Positions 21,710 through 23,543 of a DNA stretch of 64,000 nucleotides are shown here, piece by piece. The notes beneath the pieces were generated by a model. The model ran no database searches. It worked only from the letters and a program-made list of their open reading frames with translations, and was not told where the DNA came from. The stretch covers positions 156,745 through 220,744 of the forward strand of contig DRGC01000051.1 of assembly GCA_011050235.1 (NCBI GenBank). The letters are read 5' to 3'. A program made the position numbers and the translations under genes. Origin of the DNA: Phycisphaerae bacterium. Its GTDB lineage: Bacteria; Planctomycetota; Phycisphaerae; SM23-33. Positions within the stretch are counted from its first letter, which is position 1; the number at the start of each line of letters is the position of its first letter.

Positions 21710-21728
21710 TCGATATATGTCGAATAAT
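21705..21728. promoter_or_regulatory. Imperfect palindrome, candidate ArsR/SmtB operator overlapping the -10 box and start codon
   Basis: ATAATTCGATAT|ATGTCGAATAAT. Core ATTCGA (21708-21713) and TCGAAT (20-25) are perfect, and 10 of 12 positions are complementary overall. Confidence 0.4.
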
Positions 21729-22046
21729 CGCAATAACAATCCGGAGCAGTTGGCGGTGATGTTCAAGGCCCTGTCGAATCCCAATCGCATTCGGCTGTTC
21801 CTGCGCCTCGTTCGCTGCTGCCGGGGTGGACGCCGGGCGAGAACACCACAGCAGGCGTGCGCATGTGTCGGCGAGCTGGGCGAGAGCCTCAACATCGCGC
21901 CGTCCACCGTGTCGCACCACATGAAGGAACTTCACCACGCCGGGCTGGTCCACATGCAGCGACGTGGACAGAATGTCGACTGCTGGGTCGATCCCAAGCC
22001 GTTGAAACAACTGGCAAGGTTCCTCAACAAGGCCGCCACCTCGTGA
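21717..22046 (+). CDS. arsR: ArsR/SmtB family metal(loid)-responsive transcriptional regulator
   Basis: Winged-HTH LGESLNIAPSTVSHHMKELHHAGLV. Cys-x-Cys (CAC, C48/C50) sits at the position of the ArsR CVC site, with an extra CC pair (C34/C35). The track start at 21681 is the TTG of the -35 hexamer and is rejected. Confidence 0.85.
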   Translation: MSNNRNNNPEQLAVMFKALSNPNRIRLFLRLVRCCRGGRRARTPQQACACVGELGESLNIAPSTVSHHMKELHHAGLVHMQRRGQNVDCWVDPKPLKQLARFLNKAATS

Positions 22047-22065
22047 GGCCGCCTCAATAACCACC

Positions 22066-23199
22066 ATGAACGAGACAACTACACAACAAACCGACAGGTG
22101 TTGCGACGCCGGCGATTCGCAACCCCCCTGCTGCGAGGCCCAGGCTGCGGACGATCAGCCGGCGTGGGTCATCGGCGAGATCAATACGCCCGCCGGTCCC
22201 GTCCCGCACATTGCCACCGCCCTGACGTTGGCTGACCGATTGGCCGCCGCGCGCGTTCGCCTGGGTATCGGGCGGATGAGCTACGCCGTCCCGGCGGGGC
22301 TGTATGCGGTCGGCTCGCCCGATGCGGCGTCGCCGGTGCTGGTGACGGCCAATTACAAACTGTCTTTCGACCGCCTGCGCGAGCGGCTGGGGGGAATGGA
22401 CGCGTGGGTCCTCGTGCTGGACACCAAGGGCATCAACGTCTGGTGCGCAGCCGGCAAGGGGACGTTCGGTACCGATGAGATCGTGCGGCGTGTGTCGCTG
22501 ACGGGCCTGGCTGCGGTGGTCGATCATCGCACGCTGATCGTGCCGCAGTTGGGCGCGCCCGGCGTGGCCGCCCACGAGGTCAAGAAGCAAAGCGGCTTCA
22601 AGGTCGTCTACGGCCCCATCCGGGCGGTCGATATCCCGGCGTTCATGGCCGCCGGCATGACGGCGACCGACGCCATGCGGCGCGTGCGTTTCGGCCTGCG
22701 GGATCGCTCGGCTGTCGTGCCGCTCGAGCTGGTCCACTGGACCCCGTGGGCGCTGGCTGTAGCGGCGGCTGGTCTCGTGGCGGCGGGCCTGACGCGCGGC
22801 GGCTTCGACATCACGGCCGGCAATTGGCTGGGGGTGCGGTCGGCGGCGCTGGTGCTGGCGGCGCTGGTGGGTGGGGCTGTGATCGCCCCCCTGCTGCTGC
22901 CGATCCTGCCGGCCAAGACGCTGTCGGGCCAGGGCATGATCGTCGGCATCGCCATCGCGGCCGTCGCAACGGCCATGGGCTGGATCCCCCTGGCCCGGGA
23001 GACGGTGATCGAAACGGCGGCGCTATGGCTGATCGTGCCGACGATCAGTGCGTTTGTGGCGATGACCTACACGGGCGCGACGACCTACACGTCGCTGTCG
23101 GGTGTGCGCCGCGAGATGCGCCTGGCCGTGCCCATCCAGATCGCAGCCGGGGCCGCCGGGCTTGTCCTGTGGACTGTTGGGCTATTCCTTGGCCGCTGA
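22066..23199 (+). CDS. hgcA: Mercury-methylation corrinoid protein HgcA
   Basis: Cap-helix signature GINVWCAAGKGTFGT (N124-K131, nt 22435-22458). Flanking blocks VTANYKLSFDRLR and VLVLDTKG. The C-terminal approx 150 aa form about 5 hydrophobic helices. Confidence 0.85.
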   Translation: MNETTTQQTDRCCDAGDSQPPCCEAQAADDQPAWVIGEINTPAGPVPHIATALTLADRLAAARVRLGIGRMSYAVPAGLYAVGSPDAASPVLVTANYKLSFDRLRERLGGMDAWVLVLDTKGINVWCAAGKGTFGTDEIVRRVSLTGLAAVVDHRTLIVPQLGAPGVAAHEVKKQSGFKVVYGPIRAVDIPAFMAAGMTATDAMRRVRFGLRDRSAVVPLELVHWTPWALAVAAAGLVAAGLTRGGFDITAGNWLGVRSAALVLAALVGGAVIAPLLLPILPAKTLSGQGMIVGIAIAAVATAMGWIPLARETVIETAALWLIVPTISAFVAMTYTGATTYTSLSGVRREMRLAVPIQIAAGAAGLVLWTVGLFLGR

Positions 23200-23216
23200 C
23201 GGGTGAGGGCAATCGG

Positions 23217-23543
23217 ATGCTGAAATATCTGTCGAACGTGACGACACTGCACTACGACGCCGACAAGTGCGTCGGCTGCGGGCGGTGCGCGGAGGTCTGT
23301 CCGCACGGCGTGTTCGCTGGCCACCAGCGGCCAGCGGCCATAACCGACCGCGACCGCTGCATGGAGTGCGGGGCCTGCATGCGAAACTGCCCGGCCGAGG
23401 CCATTACCGTGCGAGCGGGCGTGGGGTGCGCGGTCGGCGTGATCTACGGCGCCCTTGGGATTGGCGGCGACTGCTGCTGCTCAGCCGATAGCTCAGCGGG
23501 CGATTCCTGCTGCAGCGACGCGGAATCCCCCGACGCCCAATAG
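23217..23543 (+). CDS. hgcB: Mercury-methylation 2[4Fe-4S] ferredoxin HgcB
   Basis: 108 aa, 18 nt after hgcA, with a GAGGG RBS. Has CVGCGRCAEVCP and CMECGACMRNCP (the C(M/I)ECGAC HgcB signature) and a Cys-rich C-terminal tail (GDCCCS, DSCCS). Confidence 0.85.
   Translation: MLKYLSNVTTLHYDADKCVGCGRCAEVCPHGVFAGHQRPAAITDRDRCMECGACMRNCPAEAITVRAGVGCAVGVIYGALGIGGDCCCSADSSAGDSCCSDAESPDAQ

Follow-up and report, generated by a model that had tools for sequence, protein, structure and literature searches.

The stretch of DNA analyzed here, hereinafter the window, comprises 64,000 nucleotides (nt) of contig DRGC01000051.1 (assembly GCA_011050235.1, positions 156,745 to 220,744) and contains three genes, arsR, hgcA and hgcB, which encode a metalloregulator, a corrinoid protein and a ferredoxin, respectively. 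All three open reading frames (ORFs) are intact and oriented in the same direction (+ strand), with intergenic gaps of 19 and 17 nt. The first-pass annotation, which was made from the sequence alone, placed arsR at 21717-22046, 19 nt ahead of hgcA, and assigned the ORF at 22066-23199 (+; 377 amino acids (aa)), with its cap-helix signature, to hgcA; both placements are borne out by the ORF coordinates, and the hgcA ORF contains VLVTANYKLSFDRLR and GINVWCAAGKGTFGT. The gap between hgcA and hgcB had been given as 18 nt but is in fact 17 nt, with hgcB starting at 23217 and not at 23218. The central observation of that annotation is confirmed in that, judging from the family assignments of the encoded proteins, arsR-hgcA-hgcB is a predicted mercury-methylation gene unit. 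It is through hgcA and hgcB that anaerobic bacteria convert mercury to methylmercury, a toxic compound.

The HgcA and HgcB proteins

The hgcA product matches the NCBIfam model HgcA_corrinoid (NF040863) with a score of 424.5 bits (cut-off 275), and the alignment covers positions 1-324 of the 325 positions of the model. The score with the model of the fused HgcAB-like proteins (198.6 bits) is below the cut-off of 285, and the score with the gamma-subunit model for CFeSP (corrinoid iron-sulfur protein), in which only the corrinoid domain is matched, is 74.2 bits, below the cut-off of 306. The hgcB gene (23217-23543, +) encodes a 2[4Fe-4S] ferredoxin of 108 aa that scores 116.4 bits (cut-off 99) with the HgcB_ferredoxin model (NF040864). 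These are full-length hits to curated equivalog models, which rules out chance as the source of the matches. A comparison with curated models had been suggested as a check in the first-pass annotation, and the NCBIfam models assign the two proteins to HgcA and HgcB and not to the fused HgcAB-like or CFeSP families; the family placement combines this discrimination by score with a neighbor-joining tree of homologs.

The HgcA protein consists of a Cys-rich N-terminal extension (residues 1-45), a corrinoid-binding domain (approximately residues 46-215) and a transmembrane domain (residues 218-375). The cap-helix motif NVWCAAGK (22435-22458, +; residues 124-131), which belongs to the 'high stringency' list of HgcA motifs (PMC10087281), includes Cys127 (codon 22444-22446), and the residues N124, V125, W126 and C127 are invariant among 90 homologs. 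In the AlphaFold2 model of HgcA (built on 90 homologs; mean predicted local distance difference test score, pLDDT, 89.6; predicted template modeling score, pTM, 0.84), a short helix (residues 125-131) carries Cys127. The sequence thus conforms to the cap-helix pattern N(V/I)WC(A/S)(A/G)GK with the Cys that corresponds to Cys93 of Pseudodesulfovibrio mercurii ND132 (hereinafter ND132), as judged from the motif itself and from the structural match to the ND132 model. In particular, the top Foldseek match of the HgcA model is the deposited ND132 HgcAB model (9a0b_A; E 9e-20, 44% identity, 326 columns), whereas the next matches, which are large subunits of CFeSP, are limited to 124-152 alignment columns. 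A sequence search of solved structures found no match to an experimentally solved HgcA structure; the only match was CFeSP (2H9A), which aligns with HgcA residues 56-194 (E 2.7e-9), and at the cap-helix position, the alignment of which had also been named as a check, Cys127 lies opposite the Thr of the CFeSP cap helix. The first-pass count of about five transmembrane helices agrees with both hydropathy, which reveals five hydrophobic segments, and the AlphaFold2 model, which contains five long helices (22717-23190, +; residues 218-240, 253-276, 286-303, 311-338 and 344-375).

The N-terminal extension (22066-22200) lies beyond the family model, is modeled with low confidence and contains two CC pairs (Cys12/13 and Cys22/23), which may serve as a further thiol site, with Hg(II) or some other metal as the ligand. 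Of the 116 top HgcA homologs, 57 have a CC in their N-terminal region.

In HgcB, two CxxCxxCxxxCP motifs (residues 18-29 and 48-59; CVGCGRCAEVCP and CMECGACMRNCP) are followed by Cys71, which sits thirteen residues past the last cluster Cys, and by a tail with CCC (residues 86-88) and CC (residues 98-99), in agreement with the earlier description of a 108-aa ferredoxin with the HgcB signature and a Cys-rich tail. The protein possesses every feature listed for HgcB by Cooper et al. (PMC7305189), namely the two motifs, a Cys about 12 residues past the second motif, C-terminal cysteines and adjacency to hgcA. The two genes are not fused: the stop codon of hgcA (23197-23199) precedes the gap and the separate start of hgcB. 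The same adjacency is common, with hgcB located directly after hgcA in 87 of 102 hgcA loci.

The organization of the two genes and the domain architectures of their products are the same as in ND132 (Parks et al., 2013; Cooper et al., 2020, PMC7305189; PDB-IHM 9a0b), including the NVWCAAGK cap helix and the Cys in it, five transmembrane helices after the corrinoid-binding domain and, in HgcB, two CxxCxxCxxxCP motifs, then a Cys about 12 residues further on, and C-terminal cysteines. Unlike its ND132 counterpart, the HgcA protein encoded in the window has the 45-residue extension with two CC pairs, which is common to about half of the closest homologs; the HgcB tail is longer, with five cysteines compared to two in ND132; and the apparent host is a planctomycete glycan degrader rather than a sulfate reducer. 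The large subunit of CFeSP (AcsC/CdhE; 2H9A, 2YCL, 4DJD) contains a corrinoid-binding domain that is homologous and also bears a cap helix but, in contrast to HgcA, lacks a transmembrane domain, has Thr at the cap-helix position, carries a [4Fe-4S] and TIM-barrel part at the N-terminus and is a component of the acetyl-CoA pathway.

ArsR and its promoter-operator region

The arsR gene (21717-22046, +) encodes an ArsR/SmtB metalloregulator of 109 aa with five cysteines (Cys34, Cys35, Cys48, Cys50 and Cys89), which scores 61.1 bits with the NCBIfam model NF033788 (cut-off 55) and, among the Pfam domains, matches HTH_20 (36.5 bits, cut-off 27) and HTH_5 (34.7 bits, cut-off 22). The gene is preceded by a sigma-70-type promoter, TTGACG-17 nt-TATAAT (21681-21709, +), that fits the consensus at 11 of the 12 positions (0.3 such sites are expected in shuffles of the region) and in which 7 nt separate the end of the -10 hexamer from the arsR ATG. 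The putative ArsR operator (21709-21731, +) includes the palindrome TTCGATATATGTCGAA (21709-21724), with the ATG at 21717 inside it, and a third half-site, ATCGC. This operator sequence is the sole exact match in the window and is identical in the sibling contig L061. The operator pattern alone, with one mismatch allowed, is not significant within the window (1.15 occurrences expected); the support for the operator comes instead from the conservation of its position across phyla.

Among 67 non-identical loci of the ArsR clade to which the window protein belongs, the consensus reads cTTGACAa, 16-17 nt, TATAnT, then TCGAtAtATGTCGAA.tATCGAaat. The TTGAC element is located at -36 +/-1 in 60 of these loci, the distance from the end of the -10 hexamer to the ATG is 7 nt in 48 of them and 6 nt in another 8, and the palindrome TTCGAnnnATGTCGAA is present in its exact form and at the same position in 53, from many phyla. 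We also observe that the promoter TTGACA-17-TATAAT followed by TTCGAnnnATGTCGAA is common to the whole clade regardless of whether the cargo is arsM or hgcAB (L143-L214, L223 and L224). The N-terminus of ArsR, Met-Ser-(Asn/Lys)-(Asn/Tyr)-Arg, corresponds to the translated operator sequence, and this conserved, operator-encoded N-terminus supports 21717 as the true start of arsR. The location of the start codon inside the operator implies a leaderless, self-repressed and portable module, such that the arsR mRNAs would be leaderless across at least six phyla, and the window ArsR is predicted to repress its own gene via the palindrome over the start. The promoter that is carried along explains how a cassette set between two convergent genes can be expressed, and no terminator was found on the + strand between the three genes. 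In a limited literature search, we found no earlier description of the leaderless arsR promoter-operator arrangement.

The window ArsR shows 50-61% identity to proteins from Desulfobacterota, Chloroflexota, Gammaproteobacteria, Zixibacteria, Nitrospirota and other phyla. The N-terminal MSNNR and Cys34, Cys35, Cys50 and Cys89 are conserved throughout the clade, whereas the CAC motif (Cys48 and Cys50) is characteristic of the window sub-clade; the arsM-linked members instead have a Cys in the preceding loop. These conserved cysteines, together with Cys48 in the sub-clade, are candidate ligands of a thiolate-rich metal(loid) site near helix alpha-3. When 73 species loci encoding an ArsR with at least 40% identity were sorted by the gene downstream of arsR, arsM was found in 42 (immediately downstream in 36 and within approximately 1 kb in 6; for example, L143:4897-5706 and L166:4811-5638, among loci L143-L212) and hgcAB in 12 (hgcA immediately downstream in 5 and within 0.6-2.1 kb in 7), with neither gene present in 14 loci and the contig ending too early in the remaining 5. 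All five arsM partners that were tested score 340-373 bits with the arsenite methyltransferase model (cut-off 263), and the hgcAB-linked and arsM-linked ArsRs are intermixed in a neighbor-joining tree built without support values. The arsR-arsM operons have an ArsR of the same clade and the same putatively leaderless promoter-operator, TTGACA-17-TATAAT-TCGAnAnATGTCGAA, but their cargo is the S-adenosylmethionine-dependent ArsM, in contrast to the corrinoid-dependent HgcAB. Among approximately 91 independent GTDB hgcA loci, an ArsR-like ORF, as detected by iterative hidden Markov model search over six-frame segments, sits directly upstream of hgcA in about one fifth.

Several of the related loci show additional genes. 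In L142:1276-4435 (= L210), L192, L200, L206 and L214, which derive from Zixibacteria and one Ignavibacteriaceae genome, two genes are located between an arsR of the same clade and hgcAB. Their products are a Cys-rich protein of 203 aa with a membrane anchor and a polytopic membrane protein of 231 aa, which contains an SCC motif and is possibly CcdA/DsbD-like; no NCBIfam model matches either of them. In L062:4079-7990 (on a 2.84-Mb contig), an hgcA gene whose product is 57% identical to the window HgcA is located inside an ars operon that consists of arsR, arsC of the low-molecular-weight phosphatase type, acr3 (SBF family), hgcA and a second arsC, with no hgcB gene called directly after hgcA.

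The location of ArsR beside hgcAB, which the first-pass annotation considered a known arrangement, has indeed been published (PMC7438021; bioRxiv 10.1101/2022.10.17.512643). As in the ArsR2-hgcAB loci of Pseudodesulfovibrio and Desulfovibrio (Goni-Urriza et al., 2020; Gionfriddo et al., bioRxiv 10.1101/2022.10.17.512643), an ArsR/SmtB gene is located directly upstream of hgcAB and is co-directional with it; in ND132, this regulator (ArsR2, DND132_1054) is co-transcribed with hgcAB, regulates hgcAB and responds to arsenic (bioRxiv 10.1101/2022.10.17.512643). In both regulators, a CxC immediately precedes the DNA-recognition helix and the beta-wing contains a Cys, with the ArsR2 site consisting of Cys47, Cys49, Cys86 and Cys88, whereas the window ArsR has Cys48, Cys50 and Cys89 and lacks the second wing Cys. 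The published description of ArsR2, which is reported from Desulfovibrionaceae only, sets it apart from the window ArsR, a member of a widely spread clade with arsM as the usual partner. The window sub-clade keeps an arsR gene next to hgcA, unlike the Planctomycetota hgcA loci examined among GTDB species representatives, in which no ArsR-like gene was found immediately upstream.

Borders and origin of the cassette

The three genes form a 1.95-kb cassette (21629-23577, +) between the convergent aspS and doxX genes. The closest GTDB relative, L021, is collinear with the window over more than 10 kb (including aspS, doxX, a hypothetical gene and genes for an aminotransferase and ornithine carbamoyltransferase, among others) at 78-80% nucleotide identity. 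In the blastn comparison of L021 with the window, aspS is aligned up to 21628 and the alignment resumes in doxX at 23578, and at this empty site the stop codons of aspS and doxX are 10 nt apart. The sibling contig L061 (95% nucleotide identity) carries the cassette at the same site. In the loci of the nearest HgcA homologs (L223, L224 and L226; 60-63% identity), arsR, hgcA and hgcB remain together as a unit, and the flanks are unrelated. There are no direct or inverted repeats at the cassette borders and no tRNA or integrase nearby. The GC content at third codon positions (GC3) of hgcA (0.85) and hgcB (0.84) is host-like (host mean 0.864 +/- 0.018 for 25 host genes), whereas that of arsR (0.76) is an outlier. 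No further relatives with a filled or an empty site were found in two scans of metagenome contigs with the neighboring hypothetical protein, one with a single sequence and the other with an alignment; the distant relatives of this protein come from L227, a duplicate of L021 (99.98% identity, the same organism), L228, which ends early, and L229, which is non-syntenic. Because L021 and L227 represent the same organism and L228 and L229 are uninformative, the comparison involves one cassette-free lineage.

We infer that the cassette is portable and was probably gained between aspS and doxX, and with regard to the direction of the event, we favor insertion over deletion in the relative, as roughly twice as probable. 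Presence of the cassette in the common ancestor, with precise deletion in the L021/L227 organism, would account for the host-like GC3 of hgcA and hgcB and for borders devoid of mobility genes, direct repeats and tRNA, and the single cassette-free comparator lineage leaves room for it; we nevertheless consider this scenario rather unlikely given that the closest HgcA homologs are encoded in the same three-gene unit in unrelated neighborhoods, the GC3 of arsR is deviant, the empty site amounts to merely 10 nt between two convergent stop codons, and the hgcAB phylogeny is incongruent with species trees (PMC7438021). An assembly chimera, in which a foreign hgcAB fragment would have been joined to a planctomycete contig, might be suspected because the related contig L226 looks chimeric, with a breakpoint at the conserved cap-helix motif. 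For the window, however, a chimera is extremely improbable because the identical aspS-arsR-hgcA-hgcB-doxX order is found in a JGI metagenome and in two independent Logan assemblies, the same arrangement is present in the 95%-identical L061, and the GC content is continuous over the cassette borders.

The L226 contig itself (compared over L226:1-1804) is 100% identical to L061 through arsR and the first approximately 400 nt of hgcA; precisely at the cap-helix motif the identity falls to 50-70%, and the downstream genes differ. The break could result from either assembly chimerism or recombination at the conserved motif.

Predicted function and genomic context

It appears very likely that arsR-hgcA-hgcB is a self-contained operon in a sulfated-glycan-degrading planctomycete, in which HgcAB methylates Hg(II) and which constitutes a portable cassette under the control of ArsR; on this reading of the gene content, the host is predicted to produce methylmercury. 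Under the proposed mechanism, HgcA would be a membrane-anchored corrinoid protein in which Cys127 ligates cobalt and promotes methyl transfer from the cobalt to Hg(II), HgcB would function as a two-cluster ferredoxin that re-reduces the corrinoid to Co(I), and Cys71 together with the C-terminal cysteines of HgcB would probably handle Hg(II) and methylmercury. Cys-on corrinoid chemistry has been described for this system, activity is lost in HgcA Cys93 mutants and abolished by mutation of HgcB Cys73, and the C-terminal Cys pair of HgcB has a role as well (PMC7305189); furthermore, all non-fused hgcA+ organisms tested to date methylate Hg (PMC10087281). Transcription of the operon is likely to start at its own near-consensus promoter and to yield a leaderless mRNA, with ArsR predicted to bind the palindrome over the transcription and translation start and thereby to repress expression by occluding the start, whereas binding of a soft metalloid to the ArsR cysteine cluster would relieve the repression. 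Because regulators of the same clade mostly control arsM, As(III) is the likeliest inducer, and the inducing species is predicted to be As(III) or a similar thiophilic species.

Several points weigh against this interpretation. To our knowledge, no Planctomycetota isolate has been assayed for Hg methylation. The 64 kb of the window are too little to assess the corrinoid supply and the methyl donor, and the suggestion that transcription is leaderless at this locus derives from spacing only. Recent transfer of the cassette is not demonstrated because the GC3 of hgcA and hgcB is host-like and there are no flanking repeats, integrase or tRNA, and the cassette might have been lost in the relative instead of being gained here. 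In ND132, the hgcAB transcript level did not predict the methylation rate, and ArsR2 has been reported as a distinct, Desulfovibrionaceae-restricted clade (bioRxiv 10.1101/2022.10.17.512643), so that the behavior of ArsR2 may not transfer to the window ArsR.

Alternative functional assignments have to be considered at two levels, that of the protein family and that of the selected activity. Pfam alone detects in HgcA only the CdhD domain (PF03599; residues 74-192), and for this reason several HgcA homologs are labeled as acetyl-CoA decarbonylase/synthase subunits in the JGI annotation; the probability that the window protein is of the CFeSP type and acts in the acetyl-CoA pathway, or that it is a non-methylating, fused HgcAB-like paralog, is nonetheless negligible. 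Against these assignments stand the sub-threshold scores with both respective models, the short matches to solved CFeSP with Thr opposite Cys127, the five transmembrane helices and the separate hgcA and hgcB ORFs. Furthermore, a scan of about 50 genes of the window found no acs/cdh, mer or other ars structural genes, in keeping with the first-pass statement that genes of the acetyl-CoA pathway are not nearby. Both the CFeSP and the fused-paralog readings are excluded by the model scores and the architecture. A different possibility, which we consider doubtful but worth attention, is that these proteins are true HgcAB orthologs for which Hg methylation is a side reaction, the selected function being related to arsenic or to halomethanes, for example, corrinoid-dependent methylation of metalloids in the usual place of arsM or reductive dehalogenation of CCl4 and trihalomethanes. 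This possibility is compatible with the observation that the regulator clade normally drives arsM, whereas in at least 12 species loci, which represent several phyla, it is hgcAB that occupies this position, with the promoter and operator unchanged in kind, and with the presence of hgcA inside the arsR-arsC-acr3 operon of L062. In addition, the hgcAB knockout of ND132 is more sensitive to As(V) than the wild type (bioRxiv 10.1101/2022.10.17.512643), and heterologously expressed HgcAB has been reported to dechlorinate CCl4 (bioRxiv 10.64898/2026.04.26.720869). However, an arsenic substrate of HgcAB has never been demonstrated, the As(III) sensitivity of ND132 was no different, the window contains no other ars gene, and co-regulation does not establish the substrate; moreover, the side-reaction hypothesis concerns selection alone and is compatible with Hg methylation.

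An extension of the arsenic hypothesis, to which we attach little credence, is that hgcAB and arsM are interchangeable cargo of an arsR promoter-operator module that is ancient, portable and leaderless and responds to As(III), with HgcAB selected in anaerobes such as the present host as the corrinoid-dependent counterpart of ArsM that would act on arsenite or another thiophilic metalloid, and with Hg methylation as a by-product. If this were the case, exposure to arsenic rather than to mercury would drive the expression and the horizontal spread of the mercury-methylation genes. The arsM-type regulator adds circumstantial weight to the link with arsenic without settling the physiological role of HgcAB.

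With respect to the preferred reading, a portable Hg-methylation operon, the novelty is low in that the locus is a sound but ordinary hgcAB locus for this bacterial group. Identical copies of HgcA and HgcB can already be found in NCBI nr, UniRef, a JGI metagenome and Logan assemblies, a relative of HgcA is encoded in at least 595 GTDB species genomes, and homologs with 55-63% identity are named 'HgcA [Planctomycetota bacterium]' by NCBI. In the neighbor-joining tree (without bootstrap), the window HgcA belongs to a clade of 26 sequences that includes such Planctomycetota proteins, and beyond one sibling with 91% identity, the nearest HgcA is 64% identical. The carriage of hgcAB by Planctomycetes and other members of the Planctomycetes-Verrucomicrobia-Chlamydiae (PVC) group, the transfer of hgcAB between lineages and the occurrence of ArsR and ars genes beside hgcAB have been described previously (PMC7438021), and in the Black Sea, Phycisphaerae have been reported to be important fermenters that carry hgcA (PMC10469668). 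Metagenome-assembled genomes (MAGs) of Planctomycetota, including Phycisphaerae, and of other PVC bacteria with hgcAB (PMC7438021, PMC10469668, PMC9494745) share with the window host the phylum and the presumed fermentative, polymer-degrading lifestyle. Thus, the non-classical, glycan-degrading context emphasized in the first-pass annotation is real but is not surprising, given that PVC, Planctomycetota and Phycisphaerae fermenters are published carriers of hgcA.

The locus provides a well-assembled, chromosomally anchored hgcAB+ planctomycete, that is, an additional candidate producer of methylmercury beyond the sulfate reducers, iron reducers and methanogens. The parts that are most worth pursuing are the presence/absence pair and the conserved, putatively leaderless arsR module. 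The filled and empty sites can be compared directly in two collinear genomes, whereas McDaniel et al. (PMC7438021) inferred transfer from phylogeny. The arsM-type regulator with its own promoter-operator is a testable handle on the link between arsenic and mercury methylation, and TTGACA-17-TATAAT-TCGAnAnATGTCGAA is a signature for finding such modules in metagenomes.

The GC content of the window is uniform (approximately 65%), and its gene content is that of a core chromosome, with aspS, gyrB, yidC, truD, ispH, purB, argF and a Mur ligase gene. The surroundings reported in the first-pass annotation (sulfatases, GH116 and extracytoplasmic function (ECF) sigma factors) were recovered as five sulfatases, at 5006-6373(-), 12273-13637(+), 13829-15325(-), 15368-16843(+) and 16856-18304(+), one GH116 protein at 7480-10107 and one ECF-type sigma factor within 57448-58602(-). 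A PduO-type corrinoid adenosyltransferase (Cob_adeno_trans; PF01923, E 5.7e-47) is encoded at 51246-51797(-), in the C-terminal part of ORF 51246-52217(-), where it had been noted earlier; the enzyme, which makes adenosylcobalamin, has no part in the HgcAB mechanism or in the cassette and shows only that the cell handles corrinoids. No cobalamin riboswitch was found in the window. Three large ORFs with coding-like GC3, at 42908-45310(+), 33870-35006(+) and 41787-42758(-), one of which encodes 800 aa, have no Pfam match.

In the region 5006-18304, the sulfatases are grouped with GH116, a GFO/IDH/MocA oxidoreductase, a xylose-isomerase-like TIM barrel, a cupin and a major facilitator superfamily (MFS) transporter, so that this region, just upstream of aspS, looks like a sulfated-glycan utilization locus. 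The aspartyl-tRNA synthetase encoded by aspS is 79% identical to that of an 'uncultured Planctomycetaceae' MAG and 68% identical to those of Planctomycetales MAGs, and the relatives of the adjacent hypothetical protein are mostly labeled Phycisphaerae. By these protein affinities, the host is a member of Planctomycetota, and its lifestyle is probably fermentative, with degradation of sulfated glycans.

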